Of a DNA stretch of 64,000 bases, positions 24,867 to 45,989 are shown piece after piece; positions within the stretch are counted from its first letter, which is position 1; every line of letters starts with the position of its first letter. The notes below the pieces were generated by a model. That model did not search any database, was not told the origin of the DNA, and saw nothing but the letters and a program-made list of their open reading frames with translations. The DNA comes from Candidatus Portnoybacteria bacterium (GTDB taxonomy: Bacteria > Patescibacteriota > Minisyncoccia > Portnoybacterales > GWB1-42-6). The position numbers and the translations under genes are program-made. Where the stretch lies: assembly GCA_028688325.1 (NCBI GenBank), contig JAQTYI010000001.1, positions 104,820 through 168,819 of the forward strand, read 5' to 3'.

Positions 24867-25814
24867 CTATCCCGCCCGATAGATAACCGGCTTTAATTCT
24901 TCGTCCCCGTAATGGCCCAGATATGTTTTCCAGATTCCTTCGCACCGGTCGCGCAACCGGCACTTCTGGCACTTGGCGGTTTTAGCCCGACCGACCATGG
25001 CCCGGGAACTCTCCACATCAAAATTAACAAAGTCCGGAGCCAGATGCTCCGTTTTGAATTTTTCAACTTCCAGTAGTTCGCTCACCTGGTCAAGGTAATC
25101 GGCAAAATAACAAAGGGGCACATAACGGATATGCCAATGCCCGGCTTTATTTTTTTTGCCGATATCCAGGCACTGCCGTATAAAAGGCGCGGCTTCCGAT
25201 ATTTTGGGGACAAGTTCTTCAAAATTGTTGTGCGCCGCCCCCTCGTTGCAGTCAACAAAAATAAATTCGCAATTGCGGATGCCGAGCCCCAAAATGAACT
25301 CCCCGATTTTTGGCAGCTCTTGATAATTATGTTTGACGATAGTTGTGTTGGAGCCGATATTTTCAATCCCTAAGAATTCTTTGGCGTTGTTTAAGCCCGC
25401 CAGCAATTGGTCAAAACTGCCCTTGGCCTGGGTCAAAAAATCGTGCGTACCGGCGCTTGCGCCGTGAATAGAAAAAACCACGCTGTTAAGTCCGGCGGCA
25501 AAAAGTTTTTTCGCGTAAGGCCGGTAAGAAAGCATCCGGCCGTTGGTAGCCATCATGATGGTTTTAAAACCTAAGGCCTTGGCTTTTTTCACCAGGCGCA
25601 CAAAATCCGGCCTGACTGTGGTTTCTCCGCCGATGAATTCCAGATAGGTGGTTCCCCTTTTTCTGGCGTCGAGCATTTCCCGCTCGATCTGCGCCGTGCT
25701 TTTCTTGACTAGCCGGCGCTTGTCCGAGTCAATGCAAAAACGGCAATTGTTATTGCACTCATACCCGATGATGATGACGGTTTTTTTTATTTTCGACTGC
25801 TGCTTCCTTTTCAT
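24867..25814 (-). CDS. Radical SAM enzyme, twitch/SPASM-like paralog 1
   Basis: CNNNCRFC, GGETT, TNGRML, SIHGASAGTHD, AKGSF. C-terminal C-x2-C-x5-C (CQKCRLRDRCEGIW). The start is taken as the ATG at 25814, which overlaps the upstream gene stop in an ATGA arrangement. The track gives 25895. Confidence 0.8.
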   Translation of the reverse strand: MKRKQQSKIKKTVIIIGYECNNNCRFCIDSDKRRLVKKSTAQIEREMLDARKRGTTYLEFIGGETTVRPDFVRLVKKAKALGFKTIMMATNGRMLSYRPYAKKLFAAGLNSVVFSIHGASAGTHDFLTQAKGSFDQLLAGLNNAKEFLGIENIGSNTTIVKHNYQELPKIGEFILGLGIRNCEFIFVDCNEGAAHNNFEELVPKISEAAPFIRQCLDIGKKNKAGHWHIRYVPLCYFADYLDQVSELLEVEKFKTEHLAPDFVNFDVESSRAMVGRAKTAKCQKCRLRDRCEGIWKTYLGHYGDEELKPVIYRAG

Positions 25815-27037
25815 AAGCGACTGACCCATTCCAATAAGATATTGGCCAGAGATTTTTCCAGAAGCAAAGTGGTTATCGCTCCCGCGAACATCCACAAGGC
25901 GAACGGAGAACTTTTAAAGACATTCAACGAATCGATATTTTTACCCAAAAGAACCGCCTTGATCTTTTGGGCCCCCTCGCTGCTCAAACCGCCGATGGAA
26001 TCGCCTTTCATATCCGCCAGGCCCATGCTTTCCAGGCAAGCCGGATCAATCGCCATGCCGGGCTTCAGATCCGCAGTTTTCACCGTCTGAAGCTGATTTT
26101 TTTTCGTATAAAAATCCGACAGCCACTGGAACAAAGCCAGCAGAACAACAAAAATAACAGACGCGTTGACCGTCCGATAAAGTATCTGCAAGGTGGCGGA
26201 AAAATCATTTAAAAGGCCGAGAACGCAGATAAGAACGGTTGCCGATATTATCCATTTGGCGGCCCGGGCTTTCTTGATCGCGCCGGCCACGGCTTTATTA
26301 AAGAGAATCAAGGCCGCAAAAATTATCTGCTGCGCGCCCCCCAGATCGATCGACCAGCGGGATTGCGCCAGATGCTGGATGAAGTTGAACGCCAATATCA
26401 GGAATACCGGGATCATCAATCCGTTCAAAAAACTCTTGATCTTGTCTGCGGCCTTGGGCAAAAAATGCGCCCAATCAAAAATCTTTTCCCGCCTCAGCGC
26501 CTCAAAAAAACCGGCAGGATTATCCGCCAGCCGCCGGTAAAAGGAAAAGAAAAAGTGGCCGATCGCGCTGAATAAAAAATAAACCCAAAAAACAAGAAAG
26601 ATGTTGACCAGCAGGACAAAAGAGGGAAAGACCGGCAAATAGGACTTTTGATAATGAAAAAGCGGAATGAGTAGGGAGTAAACGATGAAAAGCTTGGCAT
26701 CGCCGGCCGCCCAAGAGTTGGCTTTCCACATGATAAAGCTCACCACCGCGGCGACAATGAAATTCAGAAAACTTTTCAGCAAGAACGGCAGATTGAAAGT
26801 ATATACCGTCAATGGCGCGTCCGCCGGCAACTTCAAAATTTTGGAATGATAAAAAGCGGTCAGTGAAGGAGCCAAAAAATACCAGACGAGAAACAAAAAA
26901 AGCGCTCCCAGCCCCCAATATAACCCCAAGGTTATCCATTTATTCCTGATCTTATTATATTTTATGTCTTCATAGCTTGTGACCAGTCCAATAAAAAAAA
27001 GCATCGGCAACAACACTATGTCAAGCAATAGCAACAT
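25811..27037 (-). CDS. Polytopic membrane protein with N-terminal A24-type aspartyl peptidase-like domain (TadV/CpaA-like)
   Basis: Motif YEDIKYNKIRN aligns with the YDLRHYIIPD of the pilD in this window. Motif AAGDAKL aligns with GMGDVKL. About 250 aa of additional TM domain follow. Confidence 0.45.
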   Translation of the reverse strand: MLLLLDIVLLPMLFFIGLVTSYEDIKYNKIRNKWITLGLYWGLGALFLFLVWYFLAPSLTAFYHSKILKLPADAPLTVYTFNLPFLLKSFLNFIVAAVVSFIMWKANSWAAGDAKLFIVYSLLIPLFHYQKSYLPVFPSFVLLVNIFLVFWVYFLFSAIGHFFFSFYRRLADNPAGFFEALRREKIFDWAHFLPKAADKIKSFLNGLMIPVFLILAFNFIQHLAQSRWSIDLGGAQQIIFAALILFNKAVAGAIKKARAAKWIISATVLICVLGLLNDFSATLQILYRTVNASVIFVVLLALFQWLSDFYTKKNQLQTVKTADLKPGMAIDPACLESMGLADMKGDSIGGLSSEGAQKIKAVLLGKNIDSLNVFKSSPFALWMFAGAITTLLLEKSLANILLEWVSRL

Positions 27038-27084
27038 TGATTTAATGGGAATTGCGGCTAATTTTCTAGGCCGCGTTGATTAAT

Positions 27085-27597
27085 CTATTTTTTTACTTCA
27101 GCGCACAAAGGAGCGGTTTTAAAATTCCTGTCTCCCCAGCCCCACCAGCCGGCTTTCTGCCCGCTTGCATCCTCAACGGTCACGCCCCAATAATACGGCT
27201 TGTCAAATTCCAATTCCGGCCCGTCAACCGAATAATTTGTTGCCGGCGACTCTTTTTTTTGCGCGTCAAACACCACCATGGGAAAAACATTGTTATAATA
27301 GGCCTGGCTGCTGACCTGAACCTGAAAATATTTTTGATCTTTGGCCGCCGCTTCATCGCAATATTTCCATTTGAAGGTCGGGGTCGGAAAATTTCCGTTG
27401 TAGCATTGCGGCTGCTCGACCGAAACGCTGCAAAACGGGAACGCGACCTCCGGCCCGAAAAATTGCGTCAACTGCAAAGATTGTGTGTCATTCTTTAAAT
27501 AAAACCGGTTAAAAAAATATCCCAAAACGACAACCGCAACGATAATAATGATTATTAATTTTATATTATTTTTAAAAAAATTGGTTAAAGCGCTCAT
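27085..27597 (-). CDS. Membrane-anchored Cys-containing hypothetical protein
   Basis: 170 aa. An N-terminal TM (IIIIIVAVVVLGYFF) and 4 Cys. Confidence 0.35.
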   Translation of the reverse strand: MSALTNFFKNNIKLIIIIIVAVVVLGYFFNRFYLKNDTQSLQLTQFFGPEVAFPFCSVSVEQPQCYNGNFPTPTFKWKYCDEAAAKDQKYFQVQVSSQAYYNNVFPMVVFDAQKKESPATNYSVDGPELEFDKPYYWGVTVEDASGQKAGWWGWGDRNFKTAPLCAEVKK

Positions 27598-27637
27598 ATT
27601 GATATTGTTTTAATTAATTATAAAGCTTATGTATATA

Positions 27638-28588
27638 TTATAATATCACAACATCACCTGCCGGCAAAATGTTATTGATCGGCCGGTAAAAATCGCCGGA
27701 CAGCTCCATTCCTATCTTTTCTTTGACTGGAAAAAAATCTTCCCGGCCGACGCTCTTCAAATATCCTTTATGAATCCCGGAGCAAAGCTTTTTATAGCCG
27801 CATTTGCCGCAAGCCCTGACAAAACTCACTTCCTTGGCCGGCAAAGTCCGCCAAACATACGGCCAGATATTTTTGGCGACTGTGCACAAAGGAAAATGAT
27901 AGAACCTTATATCCTTGAAATCTTTCAGGATCGGCCCGGCTTCGTCAAGATACGGGCGCGCCTGGGCGTAATTAATTTTGACCAAATCAATATTTTTTAT
28001 GGCCTGCGCTTCAAATTCCATAAAAATAACGATTACCCTGTCTAGATCCTGAAATTTATCGCGCAACAGCCGCAGTGTGCCGCCGATATGTCGAAAAGTG
28101 GCTTTATTCAGAACGGTCCTGACGCCTATCTCTTGTCCCGGACGCCTGTTTTCCAAGATTATCCGCAGTCCCTTGGCCGCCTGCTCAAAGCTCCCCGCGG
28201 CCCTGGTTACGCCGTCGTGCACCGCGCTTTCCGGCCCGCAAAGCGACATATCAATTTCCAGATTATTGGTCACGGCCAAAAATTTTTCTGCAAAATCCCG
28301 ATAAATGAATCTCCGTCCGTTGGTTAAAAGCTTGATGCGCTGAGCGGGAAATGTTTTAGCCAAGTATCTAAAAATATCCAAAAAACGCGGGTGCAAGGTC
28401 GGCTCCCCGCCTGTCAGATAAATGGATTCGGCGGCTTTTATTTTTTTCCGGTTTTTTTCAAGCCGCCCGATGATCGCTTCAAAAGAATAATCAAAACTGC
28501 CGTCCCAAGCTGGCCAGGGCCTGTCGGGGTTGGTGCACATCAAACATTTGTTGTTGCATCTGTCCCAGACGCAAAGATCAATGGTCAT
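27638..28588 (-). CDS. Radical SAM enzyme, paralog 2
   Basis: CNNKCLMC, GGEPTL, TNGRRF, C-terminal CGKCGYKKLCSG. Confidence 0.8.
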   Translation of the reverse strand: MTIDLCVWDRCNNKCLMCTNPDRPWPAWDGSFDYSFEAIIGRLEKNRKKIKAAESIYLTGGEPTLHPRFLDIFRYLAKTFPAQRIKLLTNGRRFIYRDFAEKFLAVTNNLEIDMSLCGPESAVHDGVTRAAGSFEQAAKGLRIILENRRPGQEIGVRTVLNKATFRHIGGTLRLLRDKFQDLDRVIVIFMEFEAQAIKNIDLVKINYAQARPYLDEAGPILKDFKDIRFYHFPLCTVAKNIWPYVWRTLPAKEVSFVRACGKCGYKKLCSGIHKGYLKSVGREDFFPVKEKIGMELSGDFYRPINNILPAGDVVIL

Positions 28589-29460
28589 AATTTAAATTCC
28601 TTCGCGCCGTATAAATTTATGTAATACTGGTGGACGCCGGCGCACTTTGAGACATAAGCGCATTTGGCGCACAAATCAAAACGGACTTTCTGCGGGCTTT
28701 CTTCCAGACACGGAAAAGACAGGTGCCGATATTTTTTAGGAAAAATGCAAGGCGGATACTCAACAAACAAAAATTTGGCCAAAGCACCGAATTTTTCCTG
28801 GATTTTGATGAGATACGGCGCAGCTTGCGACATCTTTGCTATGATGCAGCGGGAATTTACGATGTTTTTGTTGAAGGGCAGGATGTGCCCGATATTAATC
28901 TCTTTTACTCCCAGGTCAATGTAAAATTTTACGATTTTAAGTAGCTCCTTGTAGTTAAGTTTGGTAACCATAACATTCAAGACCAAACTTAATCTGCGCT
29001 CTTTTTGCAAAGCAATGAAATTTTTTATTCCTTGCAGTGTTTCCTTGAAGCTTCCCTTGGCCGCGGTATGCCTGTCGTGCAGCAGAGCGTTGCACCCGGC
29101 CACCGTTATCACTGCCTGGTCCAAGCCGCTGTCGGCCAGCTTGTGCGCAAAATCCGGATAAGCCAGCAAACGGCCGTTGGTGGTTATCCCGATCTGCGAG
29201 AATTTCAAACCTTTGGCATATCTTATCAACTCAAAAATGTCCTTGCGCAGAGTCGGCTCCTGCCCCATAAAATTAATGAGATCAAATTTTTCTCTGATGG
29301 CGGCGATCTCGCGCCTGAGCTCGTCCGTGCTTTTTTGGCGGAAAATCAGGTCCCTTTCAAAGCAATAAACGCAGCGGTTGTTGCAAACATCGCCGGCGTA
29401 AACAAAGGGGCTGGCGCCCACCGGGCCCTGATAATTTTCTCTTTTAATGGCTGCCCTCAT
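28585..29460 (-). CDS. Radical SAM enzyme, paralog 3
   Basis: CNNRCVYC, TNGRLL, AAKGSF, C-terminal CAKCAYVSKCAG. ATGA overlap with paralog 2. Confidence 0.8.
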   Translation of the reverse strand: MRAAIKRENYQGPVGASPFVYAGDVCNNRCVYCFERDLIFRQKSTDELRREIAAIREKFDLINFMGQEPTLRKDIFELIRYAKGLKFSQIGITTNGRLLAYPDFAHKLADSGLDQAVITVAGCNALLHDRHTAAKGSFKETLQGIKNFIALQKERRLSLVLNVMVTKLNYKELLKIVKFYIDLGVKEINIGHILPFNKNIVNSRCIIAKMSQAAPYLIKIQEKFGALAKFLFVEYPPCIFPKKYRHLSFPCLEESPQKVRFDLCAKCAYVSKCAGVHQYYINLYGAKEFKL

Positions 29461-29476: not shown

Positions 29477-30466
29477 TTATTTTACCGGTTTGAGCTCTGT
29501 CAAACCGAAAAGTTCGGCGTAAGAGCGCCAAACACCGTGGCAAGCGCTGTTATATTTGCATTGCTGGCAAACCGGCGCTTTGATCTTTTTCCCTTTCATC
29601 GATTCGTCGAGCATCGCTTCAAATTCCGGCCCGATAAGCAAAGTGCCCAGCGGCCCTAGATCATTGATATATATCTCGTGACCCGGTACCAGGCAAGGCA
29701 CCATATTATATATGAAAGATTGCACTCTTCTTGCCGTTAAATTATTAACAATATCTATGGCCCGGCAAAGATACGGCGCCACCTTGCTCATCGGGGCGAC
29801 AATATCGGTATTATCAATGGCATTGCCTTCAAGCATGACCATGGTAAAACGAATTTCTTGAATCTTAAAATTCTTCAATAAAAATTTAACATGCTCTTCC
29901 AGCTGTTTATAGTTTAATTCCAGCATAACTATGTTGATCTTGACCTTGTGGCCGAGTTCATTGAGATTTTTTATTCCCTGGAAGGCCTGTTTGAAAGTCC
30001 CCGGCACGCCCATGATCTTGTCGGCCAGCTCGGGCTTGTGGGAATGGAAAGAAACCACAAAATTATTAACGCCGCTGTCAATTAATTTCCGGCAATATTC
30101 TTTGTACGCGTAAACCCGGCCGTTGGACTGGACTTCAATATGAGATAGGCCGATCTTTTTGGCGTAAGCGGCCAATTCCGGCAGGTCCCGGCGTAAATTC
30201 GGCTCGCCGCCCGAAAAAGCGAAACCCGCCGCCTTCATTTCCTTTACCCTGTCTATATCTTTTTTAACATCCTCAAAGGGACGCACGGCATGATAATCGG
30301 CGCTGCCGATGTTGCGCTTTATTTGGAGCCCCGTAGAACACATCAGGCAATTGCAATTGCACTTAAAAATCACCAAACTTTCCACTTTGCTCGCCTGCCT
30401 CCCCTCTGGCATTGTTTGTTCTTCTATATTTTTTGTATTTTGCTTAACTGTATTTTTTTTAACCAT
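29477..30466 (-). CDS. Radical SAM enzyme, paralog 4
   Basis: CNCNCLMC, GGEPNL, SNGRVY, C-terminal CQQCKYNSACHG. Confidence 0.8.
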   Translation of the reverse strand: MVKKNTVKQNTKNIEEQTMPEGRQASKVESLVIFKCNCNCLMCSTGLQIKRNIGSADYHAVRPFEDVKKDIDRVKEMKAAGFAFSGGEPNLRRDLPELAAYAKKIGLSHIEVQSNGRVYAYKEYCRKLIDSGVNNFVVSFHSHKPELADKIMGVPGTFKQAFQGIKNLNELGHKVKINIVMLELNYKQLEEHVKFLLKNFKIQEIRFTMVMLEGNAIDNTDIVAPMSKVAPYLCRAIDIVNNLTARRVQSFIYNMVPCLVPGHEIYINDLGPLGTLLIGPEFEAMLDESMKGKKIKAPVCQQCKYNSACHGVWRSYAELFGLTELKPVK

Positions 30467-30469: not shown

Positions 30470-31450
30470 TTAATTAAGGCAGCCGTGTTTTGCCGCCAGT
30501 TTTTTTATTTCCGCGCCGCCGTAACGGTTTAAATATTCCCGCCAAATGCCGCCGCATTCCTTATAATACCGACAGCCGGCGCAAATGGCAATGTTTTCCC
30601 GGTAGGCATCCGCGAAAATCCCCTCTTCATTTTTTTCTATGCGTTTGGGGTCATATCCAACCTGATAGCTTGTTTCCGCCCGTTTTTTGGCGTTGACCAA
30701 GCAGACATTTTTCAAAGACCTAATCTCGGGCGAAAAAACGCAAAGCGGAAAATCAAAAAAACCAAGCTCCTTAAAATCGCCGGCGATCGATGCCAGAGAA
30801 TTCAGTTCTTTGGCCAATTCAGCCAAACGCACGGCCAAAATATCATAAAACTTTTTGGCATTGCCGTCGGGGATCAGATCCAGCAAATACCAATGCTTGA
30901 CCCCCAGGCCCCGCACAAAAGCGCCGAACTTTTCCAAAGATTTATGGTTCAAGCGCGAAATGACCGAGCTGATGTTTAAATGGACTGGCGGAAACTTTTT
31001 TATGTTTTCTATCCCCGCCAAAATTTCGCCAAAAGATCCCGGCACGCGCGTCAGCGCTTCATGCGTTTTTTTATCCGGCCCCAGCAATGAAAAAGTCACT
31101 TTATTGAGCCCGGCCGCCACGATCTTTTGGCAAAAATCCGGATAACCCAGCAGCCGACCATTGGTGCTCAGCGCAATAGTTTGATACCCTATGTCTTTAG
31201 CCGCTGCCACCAGATCAAAAATATCGCGCCGCAGCGTCGTCTCCCCGCCAGTGAATTCAACCCCGTTAAAACCCTCTTCCCTGCCTTGCTTCAGATCTCC
31301 TATCAGATCATGATGGGTCCGATCCGGGTAAAATTTTTCTTTTCCCCTGATCGAACACATCAGGCAGTTATTGTTACAGGAAAAGCCGACCAGCACCAAA
31401 AGGCCTTCGGCGATCGGTTCTTTTTTTTCAGCTTTTTTCTTTTCAGGCAT
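30470..31450 (-). CDS. Radical SAM enzyme, paralog 5
   Basis: CNNNCLMC, GGETTL, TNGRLL, C-terminal CAGCRYYKECGG. Confidence 0.8.
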   Translation of the reverse strand: MPEKKKAEKKEPIAEGLLVLVGFSCNNNCLMCSIRGKEKFYPDRTHHDLIGDLKQGREEGFNGVEFTGGETTLRRDIFDLVAAAKDIGYQTIALSTNGRLLGYPDFCQKIVAAGLNKVTFSLLGPDKKTHEALTRVPGSFGEILAGIENIKKFPPVHLNISSVISRLNHKSLEKFGAFVRGLGVKHWYLLDLIPDGNAKKFYDILAVRLAELAKELNSLASIAGDFKELGFFDFPLCVFSPEIRSLKNVCLVNAKKRAETSYQVGYDPKRIEKNEEGIFADAYRENIAICAGCRYYKECGGIWREYLNRYGGAEIKKLAAKHGCLN

Positions 31451-31459: not shown

Positions 31460-32479
31460 TTAATAATACCGCCGATGGCAGCAACAGCCGCAAATCGCGG
31501 GCAACCCTCCTTTTTTAATTTGTTTGCGGAAGCCGGCCAAAGCCGGCCCCTGCCAGATCTCTTTAATGCCAGCTGATTTTAAATTACCCAAAATAAAATT
31601 ACAACCCAAAACTCCGCCGCCTGGCGAAACATCAAGATCGGGTAACAAGCTCAAGCCAAGCCATGGCAAAAAACAATCTTTTTTGAATCTATCTTTGCCG
31701 GCGGGAAAATAAAAATCGGCCAGATCTCTCTTTTTGACCGCCGGAACAAAAATGACATCAAAGGGCAGGTCCATTTTCTCCAGCGCCGACATTTGCGCCG
31801 CTATTTCTTCAGAATTCAGCTTTGTCGGCTTGGCGTTGGCGGCAAAATAAGGGTGCTGAAAAGACAAGAGGTTTATTTCAATCCGATTATCAGCAAAATA
31901 TCGCGCGATCTGCGCCAAACGAAAAAAATTATTTTCTCCAATTAAGCAGTTAACATTGATTATCTTCTTGTTCCGCTTCCCCTTCTCCAGGGCGCGCATC
32001 TTCTTTATCCCCGCCAGTGCCAATTCGAAACAGCCGCGCAGTTTCCTTGCTTCATCATGCGTCTCGCCCAGATCATCCAATGAAACATTGATCTGGTCCA
32101 AGCGCGACGAAGATAAAATTTCAGCCCGGCGGCCCAGCATAACGCCGTTAGTTGTCAGGGAAAATCTGAACCGGCCGGCGTCAAGCGACTTTACTATTTT
32201 TTCAAACTCCGGGTGCAACAACGGCTCTCCCCCGAACAAATGTATCCGGGGTTTGATAAAAAATTTTTTGGCCTCTTTTAAAATACGCTCAAAATCACCC
32301 AAAGCCATAAAGCCCTTTCGACCGCGGTAAAAATCGCCGTTTTTTTGGTAGCAAAAAGCGCAATCGCAATTGCATTCCAAAGTCAGATGGACCAGCAAAA
32401 AAAGCGGCGAGGGGCCGCCGAAAAATCTTATCGGAGCAAAAAATTTTGATGATTTACCGATTATTTTTTTCAGATTCAT
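31460..32479 (-). CDS. Radical SAM enzyme, paralog 6 (divergent Cys-rich C-terminus)
   Basis: CNCDCAFC, GGEPLL, TNGVML. C-terminal GGGVLGC...CGCCCH. Confidence 0.75.
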   Translation of the reverse strand: MNLKKIIGKSSKFFAPIRFFGGPSPLFLLVHLTLECNCDCAFCYQKNGDFYRGRKGFMALGDFERILKEAKKFFIKPRIHLFGGEPLLHPEFEKIVKSLDAGRFRFSLTTNGVMLGRRAEILSSSRLDQINVSLDDLGETHDEARKLRGCFELALAGIKKMRALEKGKRNKKIINVNCLIGENNFFRLAQIARYFADNRIEINLLSFQHPYFAANAKPTKLNSEEIAAQMSALEKMDLPFDVIFVPAVKKRDLADFYFPAGKDRFKKDCFLPWLGLSLLPDLDVSPGGGVLGCNFILGNLKSAGIKEIWQGPALAGFRKQIKKGGLPAICGCCCHRRYY

Positions 32480-33692: not shown

Positions 33693-33769
33693 CAGGCCTT
33701 CCTAACTTTCAAAAAATCCCAGATTTCCGCCGACAATGATTTATTTTCTTGTTCCATAAAATTGATCTA

Positions 33770-35485: not shown

Positions 35486-35491
35486 AAAAAA

Positions 35492-35743: not shown

Positions 35744-36599
35744 AAATTGATCTACTGATCAAACGGCCCAAAAAATAGAGTGCCGCGACCAAAGCCCCCA
35801 CCAAAAAAATCCCCGGATAGCCGGCCCTCCGGAACAACAAAAAGTAAAAAAAGGCGGTGAAAAAACAAAAAGCCGAAGTAAAACCGAGTTTTTGACCGAT
35901 CTTTTCCGGCTTAACGCCCCGGAAAGATATCTCCGCCCTTTTTTTGAACAGAAAGAATATGTTTCCCAGTCCGTCGCGCCATTTTCTCAATTTGACTTCG
36001 CCGATCCGGTCAGCATAGCCGATCGGCACTTCGGCGAATTTGAGACCCTCGGCCAGCAGCGCCTCCATTTTTATCTCTTCAGACAGCGCCATCCCCTTGC
36101 TTTTGAGCATGAACGAAAAAAGAACTTTCCGCTTAAACACCCACATGCCCGACTGGGAATCTTTCATCCTTTTTGCCGTCATCAAAAAAAACAGAGCGGT
36201 CAGTATCGCGTTGCCGAATTTATTGATCGTCTTCATTGAGCCGCTTTTTTTCAAAGGGAATCTGGCTCCGGAAATAAAATCCAGATCCCGGTCAAAGAAA
36301 ACCGCCAGAAGCCCCTTAACCTCTTCAATGGGATAAGAATTATCGCCGTCCATCGTCACAATAACATCTCCGCCGGCCGCCCGGAAACCGGCCTGATAAG
36401 CCGCTCCATATCCCCGCCGCGCCTCAAAAACGACTTTGGCGCCCAATCCTTCGGCCACCTTCGCGCTTTTATCGGTTGAGCGGTTGTCGACCACTATAAT
36501 TTCGTCGAAAAAATCCGGCCGGCGTTCCAGGATTTTTTTTATTCCTTCTTCTTCGTTATAGCAAGGAATGACCAACGAGATCTTTCTATCGCAAAACAT
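35718..36599 (-). CDS. Family 2 glycosyltransferase (Dpm1/GtrB-like, C-terminal TM anchor)
   Basis: VIPCYNEE, VVDNRSTD, TMDGD (DxD). Confidence 0.7.
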   Translation of the reverse strand: MFCDRKISLVIPCYNEEEGIKKILERRPDFFDEIIVVDNRSTDKSAKVAEGLGAKVVFEARRGYGAAYQAGFRAAGGDVIVTMDGDNSYPIEEVKGLLAVFFDRDLDFISGARFPLKKSGSMKTINKFGNAILTALFFLMTAKRMKDSQSGMWVFKRKVLFSFMLKSKGMALSEEIKMEALLAEGLKFAEVPIGYADRIGEVKLRKWRDGLGNIFFLFKKRAEISFRGVKPEKIGQKLGFTSAFCFFTAFFYFLLFRRAGYPGIFLVGALVAALYFLGRLISRSIYDRKDAFF

Positions 36600-38548: not shown

Positions 38549-39485
38549 AATTCAAAAAATACGCGGCTAATTGCTCGTTGTTGCGCCATTCGAAGATTTT
38601 TTTAGCTCCCTTGAAAACCGAAAAATGCTCCCTGCCAAAAACTATCTTGTTGCCGCCAGCAATCCCCTTTTTCACAGAGAGCAAAGCCGCGCCGTCCCTT
38701 TCTTTTTCTCCGAATTCCGGATAACTAGCCCTGAGATATCTCGCCCGCTCGTAAAAAAGCCCTCCCCGGCCCGCCTTTCCGTCGAATAAAAACCCTTGCC
38801 GCCTGTCCCAAGAATTATAAATATTCTCGCCGACCGGATCTAAAAAGATCAGCAACGGTCTTTTCAGGAGGCCGACCAGCTCCCGATAAAATTCCGGCGA
38901 ATCTTTTTTGACGCAAGCCATGATCTTTTTATGGTAAGCCAGGGTGCTCTTGCAGGAAAAGGAACAGGGCAGATGGAAAGAGAGATAATGATTGGAAATG
39001 CCGTTCAAAAAACTGTTCATCAAAAAATCAATCTTCGGCGGGATCTCTTTAAAAATAGGGCTCTGCGCGGCGGTGACCGAATGCGTCACATTTTCGATGT
39101 AGCGGTCGACACAGCAAGCCGGATAGCCCAAAAGCCGGCTGAATTCCTTGACTTCTTTCAGCGCCTGGCCGAAGTCTTTTTTTTCTATGATGATTTTGAA
39201 AGACGGATCGACCCTCTTGGCTTTCTTGGCCGATTTCGCGTCAAGCGAAAAATAGATGTTATGTCTGCCCAGCAATTTTTTGTCGCTGACAGCCATCTTC
39301 AGCCCCCATTTTTTGCACACCTCCCGATAAAGCGCCAGGTCTTCCTCCTTGCTGATCTCTCCCCGAAAAACTTTTTTCAATCCGTTCTTGACGGCGATGA
39401 GATCCACCGAAGAGAGCAGCATATCCCCTCCCCAGAAGCCCCTAACGCTCTCGCCCGGCCAGAATGTTTTTTCTTTTTTTGCCAT
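38541..39485 (-). CDS. Hypothetical Cys-motif protein (LGYPACC motif)
   Basis: 314 aa, embedded in the rSAM array. Motifs GYPACCVDRY and HLPCSFSCK. Confidence 0.4.
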   Translation of the reverse strand: MAKKEKTFWPGESVRGFWGGDMLLSSVDLIAVKNGLKKVFRGEISKEEDLALYREVCKKWGLKMAVSDKKLLGRHNIYFSLDAKSAKKAKRVDPSFKIIIEKKDFGQALKEVKEFSRLLGYPACCVDRYIENVTHSVTAAQSPIFKEIPPKIDFLMNSFLNGISNHYLSFHLPCSFSCKSTLAYHKKIMACVKKDSPEFYRELVGLLKRPLLIFLDPVGENIYNSWDRRQGFLFDGKAGRGGLFYERARYLRASYPEFGEKERDGAALLSVKKGIAGGNKIVFGREHFSVFKGAKKIFEWRNNEQLAAYFLNFV

Positions 39486-39486
39486 G

Positions 39487-40383
39487 CTATTTCTTTACCG
39501 GCTTAAACTCGCTCCATCCGAAAATCGCCGGATATTCCTTCCAAGGACCCTCGCACCGGCTAAAATACTTGCAGGAACGGCATTTGGCCGCCTTTTCTTT
39601 GCCGCTGTTGCGGCGATAATCGCCGTAATCGGCCACTGTGAAATTAGAGTCGTAGATGCTGGTCTTGGGCATGATATCTTCGGCCACGCATTGTTCATAT
39701 CCCCTCAAAAAACAGAACGGAACGGCTTCGGCGGTGACTCTTTTGCCGGCCTTGAGGCCGATCTCAAGGCCCTTTTTCAGATACGGCATTATCTCGCTTT
39801 TTTTAGGCACAAGCCACTTTTCGTTCTCCTTGGCCGAGCCCAGGATATGCACGAACGCGAATTGGAACTGGTCCACTCCCAAATCCACCAAAACCTTTGC
39901 CAGTTCCGGCAAAAATTTATAATTGCTGCTGGTGATAACGGAATTGGTCAAAACGAATTGGTTTAATTTTTTCAGGTTCTTGATGCCCCGCGTCGTTTGC
40001 TCAAAGCTCCCTTTGGCCGCCGTCAGAGAGTCATGGATCTTCGCATTGTGGCCATGAAGCGACGGGCCAAATTGCGTGGCTCCGGCCCTGATGGCCCGAA
40101 CGCAAAAATCAGGATACGCGAAAATCCGCCCGTTGCTCTGGATCTGAATTTCTTCAAAGCCGATCTTTTTGGCCGCCGCGATCAATTCGAGAAAATTAGT
40201 GTGTAAACTCGGCTCGCCGCCGGTGAAGACCACTTCCCTTTTTCCCGCCGCAAAAGCTTCTTGCAGCGAATCGACCACTTCCTTTTTGCTTTTGGACGGA
40301 AGGGTTTCCCGTTTCCTGCCTTGCACGCAAAAAACGCAGTGGTTGTTGCAGTTAAAGCCAACTTTTATGTCCACTCTTTCCAT
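39487..40383 (-). CDS. Radical SAM enzyme, paralog 7
   Basis: CNNHCVFC, GGEPSL, SNGRIF, AAKGSF, C-terminal CRSCKYFSRCEG. Confidence 0.8.
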   Translation of the reverse strand: MERVDIKVGFNCNNHCVFCVQGRKRETLPSKSKKEVVDSLQEAFAAGKREVVFTGGEPSLHTNFLELIAAAKKIGFEEIQIQSNGRIFAYPDFCVRAIRAGATQFGPSLHGHNAKIHDSLTAAKGSFEQTTRGIKNLKKLNQFVLTNSVITSSNYKFLPELAKVLVDLGVDQFQFAFVHILGSAKENEKWLVPKKSEIMPYLKKGLEIGLKAGKRVTAEAVPFCFLRGYEQCVAEDIMPKTSIYDSNFTVADYGDYRRNSGKEKAAKCRSCKYFSRCEGPWKEYPAIFGWSEFKPVKK

Positions 40384-40469: not shown

Positions 40470-40691
40470 CTATTTCACTTCGTCTATCAATTTTACGATT
40501 TTGTCCTTGGTCCCGGGAATTTCTTCGTAAGGAAAATTGTTGATAAAAAGAAATGTCTCCAGTTCCTTTACCTGATCTCCCTGTTTGTCAAAAATGGTGA
40601 AGGTCGCCAAAAACGGCTCGCCTTTTTTCATTTTTTTGACTTTGGCCGTGAAGCTTTTATACATATCGTTGCCCGATTCTTTTTTCTTCAT
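40470..40691 (-). CDS. Small 73-aa protein with own promoter and terminator (candidate precursor or recognition element)
   Basis: MKKKESGNDMYKSFTAKVKKMKKGEPFLATFTIFDKQGDQVKELETFLFINNFPYEEIPGTKDKIVKLIDEVK. It has no Cys. Confidence 0.4.
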   Translation of the reverse strand: MKKKESGNDMYKSFTAKVKKMKKGEPFLATFTIFDKQGDQVKELETFLFINNFPYEEIPGTKDKIVKLIDEVK

Positions 40692-40724: not shown

Positions 40725-40752
40725 ATTATACAGCTTAGAAAATTTATTTCAA
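40725..40752 (-). promoter_or_regulatory. Sigma70-like promoter for the 73-aa ORF
   Basis: On the minus strand: TTGAAA-N16-TATAAT, ending about 33 nt upstream of the ATG. It overlaps the rSAM paralog 8 stop. Confidence 0.4.
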
Positions 40753-41751
40753 CAGAGAATCCCTTTCCGCAAAAAAGATCCTAAAATCGTCGATTTTTTT
40801 CCCCTTCACGGGCTTCAGCTCCCCGAAGCCGTAAAAATCCGCGTAGCCCTCCCTGATGCCGTAACAGATATTGTCGTAGCGGCATCCGGCGCATCCTTTA
40901 TCCTTGCGGTCATGGGCGTTTTTGGGCTCGATCGTGATGACAAAATTGGGGTTATCAATGACCGTTTTTTTCTGGACCTTCACCCAGATATTATATTTAT
41001 TCGCTTCGCCGAGCACGCAAAACGGCAGATGCTGGACGGAAATTTTAGTTTTACCGGAATTGGCTTGCAGCGCTTTTTTTATATATGGCACGGCGTCTGT
41101 CATTTTCGGCACAAGATTGCGGTGCCGCATCAGTTCTCCGGACATAATAGGAAAGCTCAAGGTGACGCTCGATTGCCCCAGCTTATCTCTCAATAAGCGC
41201 ACTACTTCGGGCAAATATTTATAGTTGCGGGCGGTAATGACAATATTTATGCTAACTCTCTGACCCAAATTACCCAAATTGATGATCCCTTGCTTAGCCC
41301 TGGTGAAAGAACCCGGAGAACAGGTCATTGAATCATATAGTTTCGCGTTATGGCCGTGAAAAGAAATGAAAAAATCATCGGCGCCGGCCTGAACCGTTTT
41401 TTCGGCAAAAGACAAATCGGAAAATTTCTGGCCGTTCGATTCCACGGCGATGGTCTCAAAACCGATGCTTTTGGCGTATTTTATTATCTCCAGGAAATCT
41501 TTTCTAACCGCCGCTTCGCCGCCCGTTATCCTGATTTTATGCGACAATTTCTTGAATTGATCCAGCCGGTTTTTTATTTCCGAAAGAGCCGGCTCTTTCC
41601 GGCCGCCGGGCTTGTTGGCGCTCACGGAACAAAACAGACAATTTTGGTTGCATCTGCCGGTTATATATATTTCCGGAACAAACAAGGCGCCTTTGTGATT
41701 TTCGGCTCTTGATTCGGATCGACTGTTGCCCGGTAATTGTTCTTTTTTCAT
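40744..41751 (-). CDS. Radical SAM enzyme, paralog 8
   Basis: CNQNCLFC, GGEAAV, SNGQKF, C-terminal CAGCRYDNICYG...GELKPV. Confidence 0.8.
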   Translation of the reverse strand: MKKEQLPGNSRSESRAENHKGALFVPEIYITGRCNQNCLFCSVSANKPGGRKEPALSEIKNRLDQFKKLSHKIRITGGEAAVRKDFLEIIKYAKSIGFETIAVESNGQKFSDLSFAEKTVQAGADDFFISFHGHNAKLYDSMTCSPGSFTRAKQGIINLGNLGQRVSINIVITARNYKYLPEVVRLLRDKLGQSSVTLSFPIMSGELMRHRNLVPKMTDAVPYIKKALQANSGKTKISVQHLPFCVLGEANKYNIWVKVQKKTVIDNPNFVITIEPKNAHDRKDKGCAGCRYDNICYGIREGYADFYGFGELKPVKGKKIDDFRIFFAERDSLLK

Positions 41752-41778: not shown

Positions 41779-42696
41779 TTATTTTAAAATCGCTTTCAAT
41801 TTTCCCGTCCCGAATTCCTCCAGATCGCTTTTGGCAAAACCATCGCAGAAAGAATCGGCCTTGCACTTTTTACATATGGCCGCCTTGCTTTTCAACCGAT
41901 AGATCGGCAGATCTTTTATTTTTGTTTTTAATTTTCTTTCCGGCTGGCAGTATTTTCCATGGTCCGGCGGCAAGCAATTATTGATGATGTTGTTTTTTAT
42001 TTCTCCAAAAACACAAAAAGGAATTTCCATAAAACGAACCGTCTTGCCGTGTTTCCGGGAGTATTCCGCCGCTTTCTTTACATAAGGCGGCAGATCCTTT
42101 ATCGGGATATAATATTCGTGGTTGTTCCCCTCCACCTTTTTTCTGAAGGGTATAGACAAATAATAATCAACAATTGCCAATTCGTCCATTAATCTTAACC
42201 AATCCGCTAAATCGTTCTTATTTTGCTCCATGATCAAATTGGATACCTGTATCTCGATTGCCGGTGCAAGTTTTTTTATGGTGCGGAGCCCCTTTAAGAC
42301 CGAATCGAAGCTCCCTTTTCTTCTGGTGATCAAATCGTGTATCTCTTTATTTGACCCGTAAACGGGGACCCTTAATTTATCGACGCCGGTTTTTATTAAT
42401 TTTTTTAAAAAATCCTCTTCCCCCAGTTTGTTGCCGTGGCTGGAAAGCTGCACGAATCCAAATCCGATATTTTTCGCATATTTTATCAGCCTTAAGATCC
42501 CGCCGTACTCGATCGGATCCGCTCCTGATATTTCCAGCCGCCCCAGGCCCTTTTGTTTGAATTCAAGCAAACACTTGAAAACATTGATCTCTTGCTTTTC
42601 CAGTTCGGTTCGGCTGGCTTTCGGCACCCTTCGACAAAAAACACAATGGTTTTCGCATGAGGGATTGATGATTACGCCCCCTGTTTCTTTTTTCAT
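41779..42696 (-). CDS. Radical SAM enzyme, paralog 9
   Basis: CENHCVFC, C-terminal CKKCKADSFCDG. Confidence 0.75.
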   Translation of the reverse strand: MKKETGGVIINPSCENHCVFCRRVPKASRTELEKQEINVFKCLLEFKQKGLGRLEISGADPIEYGGILRLIKYAKNIGFGFVQLSSHGNKLGEEDFLKKLIKTGVDKLRVPVYGSNKEIHDLITRRKGSFDSVLKGLRTIKKLAPAIEIQVSNLIMEQNKNDLADWLRLMDELAIVDYYLSIPFRKKVEGNNHEYYIPIKDLPPYVKKAAEYSRKHGKTVRFMEIPFCVFGEIKNNIINNCLPPDHGKYCQPERKLKTKIKDLPIYRLKSKAAICKKCKADSFCDGFAKSDLEEFGTGKLKAILK

Positions 42697-42703
42697 ATCT
42701 TTA

Positions 42704-44044
42704 TTAAATCAGCGGATCTCGGGCCGACCATCGGCCGCCGGCCAATTTGGCCGCGTGCCGGCTGCCGCCGCGGCACTTATATCTGAAGTCGCAATTATCG
42801 CACCCTTTGGGCAAAAATCCCAGCGAGCGCATTTTTTTCATGAAGGGATGGCGCCAGGCCTTTAAAATTTCCAAAGGGCCGGCCAGCTTCTTGTCGATAA
42901 AATAATGCGGCTTGACAAATCCCCGCGGGTCGACCACCAGGCGGCTGTGGCCTTCATCAAATAAAGCGCCCGAGCTTATCGCGTTCATTTTGTTCCGGTC
43001 CTCTATCACACAGAACGGAACGGAATTGGCAATGGAAATTATTTTATCCGTCCGGTTTCTCAACTGAAAAATTTTATCAACCAGAGCACTTAAATCCGCT
43101 CGGCTGAGCTCGGCTTGCTTGCTAATGAACGCCGGCCGGTAAAATTCCCACTCGTCGATCGGCAAAGCTAAAATAAATTCGGCCATTTTGTCAAAATTTA
43201 AAATGGCATCGCGGCTGACCACGCTCCCCGCCCTCACCTTTGGAACTCCGGCTTTTTTCAATGAAGTTGCCGCTTTTGTCTTTTTTTCCAAAGCATCAGG
43301 AAAGCCGCAAAGTTTCTCCTCGATTTTATTATCACAACTTTCTATCGGTATCAAAATATTATCGACTAAGCCGGTCAGCTTTTTAATTGTTCGCTCATCC
43401 AATAAAGAACCGTTGGTATTAAGCCGCGTTTCCAGCTTCTTTTTCTTGGCGTAACGCAAAAGTTCAAAAATATCCGCTCTGAGCATGGGCTCACCGCCCG
43501 TAAACCTGATAATTTTTACGCCCGCTTTAGCAACGCTGTCAATAATTTTTTTCACATATTGCGTACTGAAAGGCCTGACATTCCTGCCTTGTTTGGCAAA
43601 AGATATTTTATTGAAACAAAATTGACAATTGAAATTACACTTGGGTTCAACTTCAACCATAACCTCAACAGGCAGATCTTTGATCGGCTTAATCTCTTGA
43701 TTGCCGTATTTTTTAAAATAACCGGCTGGGAAACCCGCGCAATCCTTAAAATATTTACACTGACGGCAATCGACTGTTTTTTTTCTCCTACGAGCTCCTT
43801 TTTCCGGCAAAATGTGGTCCCGTGATCTTTCATTGACAACGCAAAAAGGAAACCCTTTCAGCCAGACCTCCAGATGGTCTTCTTTATCCAAAGCATGATA
43901 AACCGATGGAATGATCGCGGAAAATTGCGGCAAAACGGCCGCCCGCTTGTTCACCGTTATTTCCAGCTTGCCGCCCCTCTTGGCGGCGATATCGGCCGCC
44001 GCCGGGATTTTTGCATGGTTGGATTTATCCGTTATGAATATCAT
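42704..44044 (-). CDS. Radical SAM enzyme, paralog 10, with extra N-terminal copy of the Cys-rich C-terminal domain (fusion)
   Basis: N-terminal FPFCVV...CRQCKYFKDCAG...YGNQEIKPI, then the core CNFNCQFC, GGEPML, TNGSLL, and a C-terminal CDNCDFRYKCRGG. Confidence 0.75.
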   Translation of the reverse strand: MIFITDKSNHAKIPAAADIAAKRGGKLEITVNKRAAVLPQFSAIIPSVYHALDKEDHLEVWLKGFPFCVVNERSRDHILPEKGARRRKKTVDCRQCKYFKDCAGFPAGYFKKYGNQEIKPIKDLPVEVMVEVEPKCNFNCQFCFNKISFAKQGRNVRPFSTQYVKKIIDSVAKAGVKIIRFTGGEPMLRADIFELLRYAKKKKLETRLNTNGSLLDERTIKKLTGLVDNILIPIESCDNKIEEKLCGFPDALEKKTKAATSLKKAGVPKVRAGSVVSRDAILNFDKMAEFILALPIDEWEFYRPAFISKQAELSRADLSALVDKIFQLRNRTDKIISIANSVPFCVIEDRNKMNAISSGALFDEGHSRLVVDPRGFVKPHYFIDKKLAGPLEILKAWRHPFMKKMRSLGFLPKGCDNCDFRYKCRGGSRHAAKLAGGRWSARDPLI

Positions 44045-45036
44045 TTTTCCGTTCCGGTTAAATTTTTATCACGGTCTTGCGCCAATTTTTTATAAACCGC
44101 CGCGCAATAATCGCATCTGTAACATTCGCTCTTGCAGCTTAATATTTTTTTATGGAAAGCCGCGGGTAATTTGTCAGTGGTGATGCCCAAAGGAGATTTT
44201 TTGCTGGTAAAAACGGCGCTAACATCCATCGGTTCGCCAAAAACATAATACCTGATCATTTTTTCCAACATATCGACGGGCGTGTCCCGGCCGACCAATT
44301 TGAAGAACTTCGCCTTGTAGTACGGCAGCATCTCCCTGGTAACAAACGGCGATCTTAAAACATTGGCGGGATCGTTGGCAAAAAAAGAATTGCAGAGGCT
44401 CTTTATTTTTGCCAGGGGCTGGCTCTGATCGGAAAAGTGCGCCAGAGTGATGAAAGTGCCGTGGTCGCCCGAGAGCGAACAGCGAGGCGCGCAACCTTCA
44501 TTGAGCATCACATCGGCGTCCACGCCGATTGAATCAGCGTAATCTATGATCCTATTGACCAACTTATAGTCGCGGTTGATATCTCTGTCTATTACAAGAT
44601 ATTTTATTTCCGGGAACCTGGACTTGATGCTGTGCAAATGCTGAGGCGTACCAACCCGATAAGTGACACTCACGCCTTTCTGGAAATTCCCAAAATTCTT
44701 ATGCGCGAACAAAACCATGGAGGCAAAGATCAGGACGGTATGCTTGCTACTATAAGGCGTCAGATCGACCGCGTCGTAATCAAAACCTCCTTGAAGATCG
44801 TGCGGAGTTGCGTTGAACAAAATGTTGAATCTTTTATTATTTTTAAGACACCACTTATATACCCTGTCGAAAAAATCTTCAGAAGGAGAAAGCAGCACCC
44901 GGCCGGAGGGAGCATTTTGCCAACCCAAATATACTCCACCTATGAATTTCTTATATTTTTCCAAGATGCGGAAATATCCCTCGTCGTCCTTGCCTATAGG
45001 CATCAAAAAACGGTTATTCAAAAAATTTTGAGTCAT
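44041..45036 (-). CDS. Hypothetical protein with C-terminal CxxxCxxCxxC
   Basis: 331 aa. NEGCAPRCSLSG and CKSECYRCDYC. A weak resemblance to U32-type proteins is not established. Confidence 0.35.
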   Translation of the reverse strand: MTQNFLNNRFLMPIGKDDEGYFRILEKYKKFIGGVYLGWQNAPSGRVLLSPSEDFFDRVYKWCLKNNKRFNILFNATPHDLQGGFDYDAVDLTPYSSKHTVLIFASMVLFAHKNFGNFQKGVSVTYRVGTPQHLHSIKSRFPEIKYLVIDRDINRDYKLVNRIIDYADSIGVDADVMLNEGCAPRCSLSGDHGTFITLAHFSDQSQPLAKIKSLCNSFFANDPANVLRSPFVTREMLPYYKAKFFKLVGRDTPVDMLEKMIRYYVFGEPMDVSAVFTSKKSPLGITTDKLPAAFHKKILSCKSECYRCDYCAAVYKKLAQDRDKNLTGTEK

Positions 45037-45041
45037 GGCGG

Positions 45042-45989
45042 TTAATTTCCGATACGGCTGAAATTATTTTTTATGGTTTTTGGCGGCCAACAGAACATCG
45101 GATGAAAGCAGGCCTCGTCGCAACAAGGGCATTGTTCATGCTGCCCCAAGTCCTTTATTTTTTTAACATAAACGCCTTTGGCGACATTTCCTATTTCCCG
45201 GGTGCTGTTAAAACAGGGATACACCGACCCATCCGGCCTAACATCGGCAAAAATGTTTCCGGCCAGGCATTTATCCATCAGCGGCATCTTGCCTGTTTTT
45301 AAATATTCGCCTTGCGCCTTTAAAAATGGATCATCCGAGCCGCAATTTTTTATGAAATCGACAACCAGCGCCTTTTGCTTGCCAGAAAATTCAAGCCGCT
45401 TTTCATGATTATAATGGTAAACGCTGTTATAAAACGGCCTGAAAGAAAAAGCACTGCCGGTTTGGACCGCGATTTTTTTAATATGATTAAGAGAGCGTCG
45501 ATTGCAATTTAGATGTGTTAAAGTGGTTAAAATAACCGTCTGTAGCCGAGGCGCCGCTGCTCGACAAAGCTTTAAAGTCAGGAGCGCAGAATTATAGCTG
45601 TCAATGCCTCTGATCTTTTTATTAGTCACCCCGTCTCCTTCCAAAGAAACGGCCAAGCGCAAGGTTTTTATCTGTTGATTTTTATTCAATTTTTTAAATA
45701 ATTCAGCCGCTTTTAAGGGAGAAGTGCCGTTGGTCGTTAAAAGAAACTTCGTAACCTTGGGCATGGAGCGCAAAATAGTTTTAATAATCTGCTCTATGTC
45801 TTTTCTCAAAAATGCCTCTCCTCCGGAAATAAAAAATTCTTCCACTTCTTGAAATTCCGGTTGGGAAAATAATTTTTTATATTGAGAAGCGCTAACTTCT
45901 CGACCCGTTGCTTGTTCCTTCCAAAGATGACAAATCAAACAACGACTGTTGCATTTTCTGGTAACTCTAATTCCCAAGCTTTTTAACAT
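45042..45989 (-). CDS. Radical SAM enzyme, paralog 11
   Basis: CNSRCLIC, GGEAFL, TNGTSP. C-terminal Cys residues CPCCDEAC. Confidence 0.75.
   Translation of the reverse strand: MLKSLGIRVTRKCNSRCLICHLWKEQATGREVSASQYKKLFSQPEFQEVEEFFISGGEAFLRKDIEQIIKTILRSMPKVTKFLLTTNGTSPLKAAELFKKLNKNQQIKTLRLAVSLEGDGVTNKKIRGIDSYNSALLTLKLCRAAAPRLQTVILTTLTHLNCNRRSLNHIKKIAVQTGSAFSFRPFYNSVYHYNHEKRLEFSGKQKALVVDFIKNCGSDDPFLKAQGEYLKTGKMPLMDKCLAGNIFADVRPDGSVYPCFNSTREIGNVAKGVYVKKIKDLGQHEQCPCCDEACFHPMFCWPPKTIKNNFSRIGN

Follow-up and report, generated by a model that had tools for sequence, protein, structure and literature searches.

An expanded His-Xaa-Ser (Hxs) operon with eight HxsC-family radical SAM paralogs in a Candidatus Portnoybacteria genome

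The protein families of the His-Xaa-Ser (Hxs) system were reportedly defined by Haft and Basu. In E. coli, HXS is an antiphage system of four genes in the order D-B-C-A (Li et al., Nat Commun 2026, PMC13128918). HxsA, which carries five HxS repeats and a peptidoglycan-binding domain, is matured by HxsB, HxsC, and HxsD, and HxsC binds HxsD (PMC13128918). Maturation consists of N-terminal processing and a change of +8 Da on one SHRSS motif, and mature HxsA works in the periplasm against phage DNA entry (PMC13128918). Pseudomonadota account for 99.7% of HXS systems, and more than 99.8% of the systems consist of exactly four proteins (PMC13128918). Here, we describe an operon in a 64,000-nucleotide stretch of DNA (the window) from a Candidatus Portnoybacteria metagenome-assembled genome (MAG). 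The locus belongs to the Hxs family: alongside a genuine repeat precursor, HxsB, and HxsD, it encodes eight HxsC-family paralogs and four further radical S-adenosylmethionine (rSAM) enzymes. The first-pass annotation, made from the sequence alone, had known of no described system with this many tandem rSAM paralogs. At the family level, however, the described system is Hxs. The locus is a strongly expanded variant of a known family and is neither categorically new nor unique to this genome. The NCBIfam models HxsA4, HxsC4, and HxsD_rel already exist, so that curators have seen the 'type 4' form. We found no publication on type 4 or expanded Hxs systems, on those of the candidate phyla radiation (CPR) or other candidate phyla, or on their paralog multiplicity.

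The operon comprises 30 genes, all on the minus strand, running from 52827 to 24867 (~28 kb) with intergenic gaps of 205 bp or less (Table 1). Thirteen of them encode rSAM enzymes. Eleven (R1 to R11) lie within 24867-45989, the interval that had been flagged as a tandem array of co-directional rSAM genes. The array is real. Each of the eleven open reading frames (ORFs) passes the Pfam Radical_SAM model PF04055 with 48-89 bits (cut-off 29.5), and all of them are co-directional and tightly packed. The interval captures the array but omits the key Hxs genes at 49499-52290, as well as the other two rSAM genes, R12 and HxsB. The many ATGA overlaps that had been seen between the genes are reduced to two true 4-nt cases, between the 331-aa protein (UNK331) and R10 and between R3 and R2. 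The remaining gaps are 1-205 bp or depend on the choice of start codon.

The key Hxs genes upstream of the array encode HxsA4, HxsB, HxsD, and an HxsD-like protein, all of which score above the curated NCBIfam cut-offs. HxsA4 has a basic leader and a hydrophobic stretch, followed by 25 consecutive H-[AGSN]-S triplets encoded by a 9-bp x 23 tandem repeat. The leader, approximately LPxIKKxIxxFLxSEEGxIxKK before the hydrophobic stretch, is kept in 30 homologues from bacteria to archaea. The features expected of a ribosomally synthesized, post-translationally modified peptide (RiPP) are present, namely a conserved leader, a core with a variable number of repeats (5-50), adjacent modifying enzymes, and an A24-family peptidase. 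A promoter-like site precedes hxsA4, a terminator-like hairpin follows it, and a second promoter-like site comes after the hairpin, all as consensus matches only. A promoter and a terminator of its own around a gene is a layout typical of precursor genes. The gene sits 3.5 kb upstream of the array. The first-pass annotation had left a choice between a heavily modified peptide and a radical tailoring pathway on a glycan or small molecule, and the nearby precursor makes the peptide the better option. A 186-aa ORF on the opposite strand (49252-49812, +), rich in HGK/HEK/HER, is the antisense reading of the hxsA4 repeat and not a gene.

Eight of the eleven array genes, R1-R5 and R7-R9, form one family in an all-against-all BLASTP comparison. 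They are pairwise 23-35% identical over nearly their full length, with E-values from 1e-11 to 1e-55, and this similarity far exceeds chance. R6, R10, and R11 fall outside the family and represent other rSAM subtypes. A motif skeleton shared by all eleven had been proposed. In the alignment, the full skeleton, which consists of CxxxCxxC, GGE, (T/S)NGR, HD, G(S/T)F, and PxC...CxxCxxxxxCxG, is seen in the eight family members only; R6 is a SPASM enzyme, R10 is SPASM-like, and R11 is of another subtype. Invariant among the eight are CxxxCxxC, one Gly of GGE, G(S/T)F, and the C-terminal P-x-C...C-x2-C-x5-C-x-G. The canonical HxsC encoded in the D-B-C-A system of an Aeromonas plasmid has every invariant position of the skeleton, including PxC...CxxCxxxxxCxG. 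The skeleton is therefore the signature of the HxsC family. Canonical HxsC also has an extra N-terminal domain of ~110 residues, which is not present in the eight paralogs.

The NCBIfam models agree with this placement at the level of the family. HxsC4 (NF038332) is the top model for R1, R3, R4, R5, R7, R8, and R9, and HxsC (TIGR03977) is the top model for R2. The HxsC4 scores are 165 bits for R1, 162 for R7, 149 for R5, 114 for R3, 112 for R4, 112 for R8, 99 for R2, and 74 for R9. Since the cut-off is 500 bits, none of the eight is HxsC4 proper. PGAP/NCBI labels the paralogs merely as 'radical SAM protein' and annotates HxsB by name.

The subtype of these enzymes had been given as twitch/SPASM-like. 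SPASM is a seven-Cys motif that binds two auxiliary clusters, and twitch is an abbreviated SPASM fold with one auxiliary cluster. What stands of the assignment is a single rSAM subtype with an extra C-terminal Cys motif. Pfam SPASM finds no match in R1-R5, R7-R9, or canonical HxsC, whereas HxsB and R6 do match. Across 68 sequences, the invariant cysteines are C12, C16, and C19 plus C224, C268, C271, and C277. The four C-terminal cysteines would fit one fully Cys-ligated auxiliary cluster rather than the seven-Cys SPASM motif, and they probably hold one auxiliary Fe-S cluster. In this respect, the paralogs differ from the SPASM/twitch RiPP maturases anSME, SkfB, SuiB, PqqE, and CteB, which have seven extra cysteines. 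Profile matches to PDB sequences span only residues ~5-207, with the best match to BlsE (E 1e-25), and none of them reaches the Cys-rich tail. A SPASM assignment by sequence was rejected on these grounds, and twitch-like is at most a possible description of the eight paralogs.

The AlphaFold2 (AF2) model of R7 has a predicted local distance difference test score (pLDDT) of 96.6, and the rSAM fold is modeled confidently. The fold of the paralogs is similar to that of the small-molecule rSAM enzymes BlsE and viperin. In the structural comparison, the values are 22.8 for viperin, 22.6 for SkfB, 22.5 for GDGT-MAS, 22.4 for BlsE, 20.6 for SuiB, 19.3 for anSME, 18.8 for MoaA, and 12.3 for BtrN. PADLOC 2023, which has no Hxs model, gave only a generic viperin-core similarity. 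The C-terminal Cys domain is also found outside the eight paralogs. Residues 1-122 of R10 can be aligned with the last third of R8 (E 9e-8). R10 thus carries the 4-Cys domain as an N-terminal module, and the domain behaves as an autonomous unit. Relatives of R10 that are 44-61% identical sit immediately before R7 in ~17-19 other loci.

The distribution of related loci was examined starting from R7, the best-conserved paralog. R7 has 1372 database relatives at E<=1e-10, more than 100 of which are at least 59% identical. A scan of one genome per species found relatives of R7 in 224 species, and the best 80 loci, 49-72% identical to R7, were kept. The hosts of these 80 are Elusimicrobia, Omnitrophota, Myxococcales, Verrucomicrobia, and Patescibacteria (Falkow-, Buchanan-, Pacei-, Uhr-, Nealson-, and Moraniibacteria) among the bacteria, and Woese-, Aenigmat-, and Iainarchaeota and Fermentimicrarchaeum among the DPANN archaea. 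For the 40 longest or full-length loci, markers were counted up to 10 kb from R7, and rSAM genes were counted in 38 full-length loci of 21 kb. Per locus, the medians are five HxsC-like genes and seven rSAM genes in total, and the highest number is 11. Such an array is thus not confined to the window; multi-HxsC loci are common in MAGs, and those linked to HxS precursors and the A24-family peptidase are widespread in uncultured lineages.

A contiguous gene order recurs in several of these loci (for example in L004, L024, L034, L040, L050, L052, and L063). It runs HxsD, HxsD-like, HxsB, HxsA, (R10), R7, R5/R4, R3, (DUF483), R1, R2, A24 peptidase, and Ig-like protein. An HxS-repeat ORF with the same leader is present in 31 of the 80 loci and has 5-50 repeats, although the HxS-repeat genes of several public MAGs (L004, L034, L052) contain N runs, so the repeat counts there are unreliable; the copy in the window has none. 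The A24 peptidase is found in 26 of the 40 loci, DUF483-like ORFs in 15 of the 80, and homologues of the Ig-like protein recur at the ends of related loci. Most of the paralogs have their own orthologues in other species (Table 1). The HxsC-family paralogs are ancient and distinct and are not recent copies. Their age and individual conservation argue for distinct functions. Single-linkage clustering of 288 HxsC-like ORFs fused R1 with R7 at 42% identity; it was uninformative and was replaced by reciprocal-best counts.

Several of the related loci vary this pattern. In the Paceibacterota locus L050 (4828-8400, -), YcaO, a nitroreductase-family dehydrogenase, and a TPR protein lie between a 504-aa HxsA with 41 HxS repeats and an R7-R4-R1-R2-A24 array. 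YcaO and a dehydrogenase are a classic Ser-modifying RiPP pair, and the module hints at azoline/azole formation on Ser residues. YcaO was rejected as a general component, being present in only one of the 80 loci. Five elusimicrobial loci (L042, L044, L046, L049, L071) have two HxsD-HxsB pairs and a third HxsB-like gene around one HxsA. Paralog expansion thus strikes different Hxs components in different phyla. In five other Elusimicrobia loci (L032, L035, L039, L045, L048), R7 orthologues that are 54-55% identical have no Hxs marker within 10 kb and are accompanied by one or two proteins of ~475 aa, a ~200-aa protein without a Pfam match, and another rSAM gene. This context suggests that R7 may have a second role. 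A suite of rSAM genes beside nitrogenase paralogs has been described in groundwater Elusimicrobia (Meheust et al.). None of 82 loci contains a NifH-type P-loop ORF, so a link to that suite is not established.

The putative leader peptidase is a 408-aa membrane protein encoded between R1 and the second Ig-like gene. Peptidase A24 is a polytopic membrane protein with two catalytic Asp residues, the second of which lies within a GxGD-type motif. Among 24 homologues from related loci, 20 match PF01478 (best E 8e-8) and three match Arc_PepC, the archaeal A24 C-terminal domain. D24 and (A/G)-G-D113-x-K115 (G112 in the window protein) are invariant in the family of the window protein and the 24 homologues. 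By itself, the window protein reaches 17.2 bits with PF01478, under the cut-off of 26.5. An hhalign comparison of the family with the genome's own PilD gave no signal, and a PDB profile search with the family returned a single spurious match to a designed protein. The A24 assignment therefore rests on the family-level Pfam matches and the motifs. The ordinary prepilin peptidase of the genome is distinct from this homologue and belongs to a type IV pilus set elsewhere in the window (4769-14341, -). Besides this PilD-type A24 enzyme, the set includes PilC, PilM, two T2SSE ATPases, and a pilin carrying an N-methylation motif.

Compared with the four-gene HXS system, the window operon has in common an above-cut-off HxsB and HxsD, an HxS-repeat protein, the HxsC-type skeleton, and rSAM genes beside the repeat substrate. 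HXS has a single HxsC, in contrast to the eight HxsC-family paralogs and four other rSAM enzymes of the window. The HxsD-like protein, the A24 peptidase, and the Ig-like membrane proteins are additional. HxsA4 has a different leader and 25 repeats instead of the five of canonical HxsA, and it does not have the ~95-residue C-terminal region of canonical HxsA that corresponds to the peptidoglycan-binding domain (PMC13128918). The gene order in the window is D, D-like, B, A, and then the rest, in contrast to D-B-C-A. The window operon thus does not show the four-gene D-B-C-A architecture with a five-repeat, peptidoglycan-binding HxsA. The hosts differ as well, with Patescibacteria, DPANN, Elusimicrobia, and Omnitrophota for the window type and Pseudomonadota for HXS. 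Of the NCBIfam type 4 models, HxsA4 (NF038313) and HxsD_rel (NF038315) are matched above the cut-off and HxsC4 below it.

With a probability of roughly 70%, we regard the region as the enzyme-rich part of an operon for an expanded 'type 4' Hxs maturation system. HxsA4 would be the ribosomally made substrate, with a leader, a hydrophobic segment for export or anchoring, and 25 His-Xaa-Ser units. In the cytoplasm, HxsB would modify the HxS units together with HxsD, the HxsD-like protein, and eight non-redundant HxsC-family enzymes. The latter probably catalyze different radical steps rather than one step at different positions, and the four rSAM enzymes of other subtypes may add further steps. 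The A24-type membrane aspartyl peptidase probably removes the leader at or near export, with a candidate cleavage site behind the conserved SEE(G/A). The likely targets of the block that is seen in this lineage only (GT4, aminotransferase, GT2, PMT_2/GT-C, carbamoyltransferase, and GDSL) are the Ser-rich product after export or the envelope, either of which it would decorate. The product may be an effector of the cell envelope, which is an extrapolation from the four-gene HXS antiphage system.

A number of observations weigh against this proposal. No paralog reaches the HxsC equivalog cut-off of 267.9 bits; R2 is best with 154 bits and the others score 70-104, and the HxsC4 cut-off of 500 is likewise unmet, the maximum being 165. 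The GGE motif of R9 is degenerate in the alignment, and R9 may not be catalytic for this reason. A near-perfect repeat substrate has no obvious need for eight different enzymes. The nearest solved sequence relatives, BlsE and viperin, use sugar nucleosides or nucleotides as substrates and not peptides. Hxs markers were found in only 20 of the 40 loci, which is a minimum imposed by the flank limit because HxsB is already ~10 kb from R7 in the window itself. R7 orthologues in some Elusimicrobia occupy a different, non-Hxs context. The identity of the peptidase as A24 depends on family-level matches and motifs, with the hhalign comparison to the genome's own PilD having failed.

The main rival is a division of labor within the operon, which we consider unlikely though worth weighing. 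HxsB, HxsD, R2, and perhaps R1 and R7 would mature the HxS peptide, and R6, R10-R12, and some HxsC-like enzymes (R8, R9) would act with the aminotransferase, glycosyltransferases, and carbamoyltransferase. Their joint product would be an unusual sugar or glycan, built and tailored first and then joined to the peptide or the envelope. Orthologues of R6, R8, R9, R11, and R12 are scarce or absent in related loci, and these genes adjoin the lineage-specific glycosylation block, where R11 and R12 are interleaved with the GT4 and aminotransferase genes. The closest solved relative by sequence, BlsE, is a sugar-nucleoside decarboxylase. However, the whole HxsC skeleton, with its 4-Cys tail, is retained in both R8 and R9, and loci with 5-8 HxsC-like genes often lack any glycosylation genes (L028, L040, L043, L063).

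Far less probable is the proposal that the whole array carries out radical tailoring of a glycan or small molecule and that the Hxs genes are mere neighbors. Its appeal lies in the glycosyltransferases, aminotransferase, carbamoyltransferase, and GDSL enzyme inside the array, and in the resemblance of the fold to BlsE and viperin. Yet in phyla and domains that lack the glycosylation genes, the HxsC-like paralogs still lie in synteny with HxsA, HxsB, and HxsD, and just 13 of the 40 full-length related loci contain glycosylation-type genes. The skeleton also equals that of canonical HxsC, which matures HxsA (PMC13128918). The purely glycan or small-molecule pathway of the first-pass annotation is unlikely in this light. 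An assembly artefact or a very recent tandem duplication of a single rSAM gene, named at the outset as a possible undoing of the array and suggested by nothing but superficial motif repetition, is ruled out by the low identity of the paralogs (23-35%), by closer orthologues in other species, and by identical proteins in the same gene order on a 789-kb NCBI MAG contig (GCA_028710785.1) and in an independent Logan assembly.

If the expanded Hxs maturation system is taken together with its relatives, a broader reading can be offered, which is tentative and which we hold to be possible but doubtful. The proteobacterial four-gene HXS would be a pared-down offshoot of a much larger, undescribed class, which transfer has distributed among ultrasmall bacteria and archaea of groundwater (Patescibacteria, DPANN, Elusimicrobia, and Omnitrophota). 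In this class, 4-8 ancient HxsC paralogs would act on every unit of a long HxS array, each adding its own kind of radical modification. The result would be a densely cross-linked polymer, glycosylated in this lineage and A24-processed for surface display. If so, it would be a new type of material made of modified protein, which might, for example, block the entry of phage DNA, bind metal, or attach to a host.

The locus and its relatives widen the known range of the family, as they show a broad distribution of Hxs-type systems among candidate-phyla bacteria and DPANN archaea. The expanded versions encode 4-8 distinct enzymes of the HxsC family and a putative membrane peptidase of their own, and their precursors reach ~50 repeats. 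Tailoring modules differ by lineage, with glycosylation and carbamoylation here and YcaO and a dehydrogenase in one Paceibacterota locus. The locus is at odds with the published view of HXS as a four-gene, proteobacterial system and reveals a large undescribed class. The natural series of enzyme sets offers a way into HxsC chemistry. If the product is an envelope effector, it would point to a surface structure not yet explored, in organisms whose life depends on contact between cells.

Table 1. Features of the Hxs operon in order of transcription. The last column gives the number of loci, among the 80 related ones, with a reciprocal-best orthologue at >=40% identity, and the best identity.
Feature	Position	Strand	Evidence	Orthologues
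Small membrane protein with Ig-like domain, opens the co-directional block	52327..52827	-	PF25788 Ig_Rha78A_N 34.3 bits vs 27.4	
HxsD	51748..52290	-	TIGR03976 60.6 bits, cut-off 50	
HxsD-like protein, likely ATG start 51736	51518..51841	-	NF038315 68.7 bits, cut-off 41	
HxsB, rSAM/SPASM maturase	50042..51514	-	TIGR03978 541.5 bits vs 370; PF13186 24.7 vs 21.5; NCBI name HxsB	
Promoter-like site 5' of hxsA4	49971..50000	-	TTGACG-18-TATAAT, 11/12, extended TG; consensus match only	
HxsA4 precursor, 132 aa	49499..49897	-	NF038313 92.2 bits, cut-off 55	
Terminator-like hairpin directly 3' of hxsA4	49436..49466	-	13-bp stem, 6 GC pairs, then T-run; consensus match only	
R12, rSAM of other subtype, STM4011-like	48373..49293	-	PF04055 47.6 bits; NF038073 69.6, under cut-off 200	
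GT4 glycosyltransferase	47273..48355	-	PF00534 108.5 bits	
Class III aminotransferase	46039..47262	-	PF00202 295 bits	
R11, rSAM of other subtype	45042..45989	-	PF04055 55.4 bits; weak partial SPASM 16.8, under 21.5	
331-aa protein (UNK331), Cys-rich C-terminus	44041..45036	-	No Pfam/NCBIfam match; ATGA overlap with R10	
R10, HxsC-type 4-Cys domain (N-terminal) fused to SPASM-like rSAM	42704..44044	-	PF04055 87 bits; NirJ2 and PqqE models align to its end	17 loci, best 55%
R9, HxsC-family paralog, degenerate GGE	41779..42696	-	PF04055 48 bits; top NCBIfam HxsC4 and HxsC	0; none in the sampled loci
R8, HxsC-family paralog	40744..41751	-	PF04055, NCBIfam, motif alignment	1 locus, best 53%
73-aa ORF	40470..40691	-	Gene call in two assemblies; no family match	
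R7, best-conserved HxsC-family paralog	39487..40383	-	PF04055 85 bits; HxsC4 162 bits vs cut-off 500	80 loci (by construction), best 72%
DUF483 protein	38541..39485	-	PF04467 35.8 bits vs 25	
PMT_2/GT-C membrane glycosyltransferase	36608..38548	-	PF13231 45 bits vs 26.1	
GT2 glycosyltransferase, hydrophobic C-terminal tail	35718..36599	-	PF00535 84 bits	
83-aa membrane ORF beside carbamoyltransferase	35492..35743	-	No family match	
NodU/CmcH-type carbamoyltransferase	33770..35485	-	PF02543 279 bits, PF16861 229 bits	
DUF5989 small membrane protein	33593..33757	-	PF19451 80.7 bits	
GDSL/SGNH-type hydrolase or acyltransferase, likely start 33593	32484..33692	-	PF00657 26.1 bits vs 23.6	
R6, rSAM/SPASM enzyme, not HxsC-like	31460..32479	-	PF04055 75 bits; PF13186 31 vs 21.5	
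R5, HxsC-family paralog	30470..31450	-	PF04055, NCBIfam, motif alignment	8 loci, best 61%
R4, HxsC-family paralog	29477..30466	-	PF04055, NCBIfam, motif alignment	5 loci, best 65%
R3, HxsC-family paralog	28585..29460	-	PF04055, NCBIfam, motif alignment	13 loci, best 59%
R2, paralog nearest canonical HxsC	27638..28588	-	TIGR03977 154 bits, E 3e-45, near-whole model; under 267.9	16 loci at >=40% (29 loci with a reciprocal-best orthologue), best 56%
Second small Ig-like membrane protein	27085..27597	-	PF25788 39 bits	
A24-family (prepilin/preflagellin-type) membrane aspartyl peptidase homologue, candidate leader peptidase, 408 aa	25811..27037	-	Homologue Pfam matches and motifs	
R1, HxsC-family paralog, final operon gene, likely start 25814 or 25829	24867..25895	-	PF04055 80 bits; HxsC4 165 bits	29 loci, best 68%

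Within the glycosylation block, the carbamoyltransferase has the 83-aa membrane ORF on one side and the DUF5989 protein on the other (33593-35743, -). This arrangement presumably resembles that of SxtI and its companions SxtJ and SxtK in saxitoxin clusters.

The surroundings of the operon contain several other genes. A surface-type ORF of more than 3458 aa (53623-63999, -) runs past the end of the window. It combines a Peptidase_S74 (endosialidase chaperone) domain with a large internal duplication and a tail rich in Pro/Thr. Between this giant gene and the Hxs operon lies a gene for a REP-associated tyrosine transposase-like protein (52884-53603, -; NF047646 42.9 bits, under the cut-off of 80). 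A methyltransferase and an AMP-dependent ligase (20684-22843) have the DVU_1556 and DVU_1553 families as their best or near-best NCBIfam matches, both under the cut-off, and seem to have no connection with the Hxs operon. A stand-alone 688-aa ketoacyl synthase with N- and C-terminal ketoacyl synthase (KS) domains is encoded ~22 kb from the array (625-2691, -), and no other polyketide synthase (PKS) domains were seen nearby.

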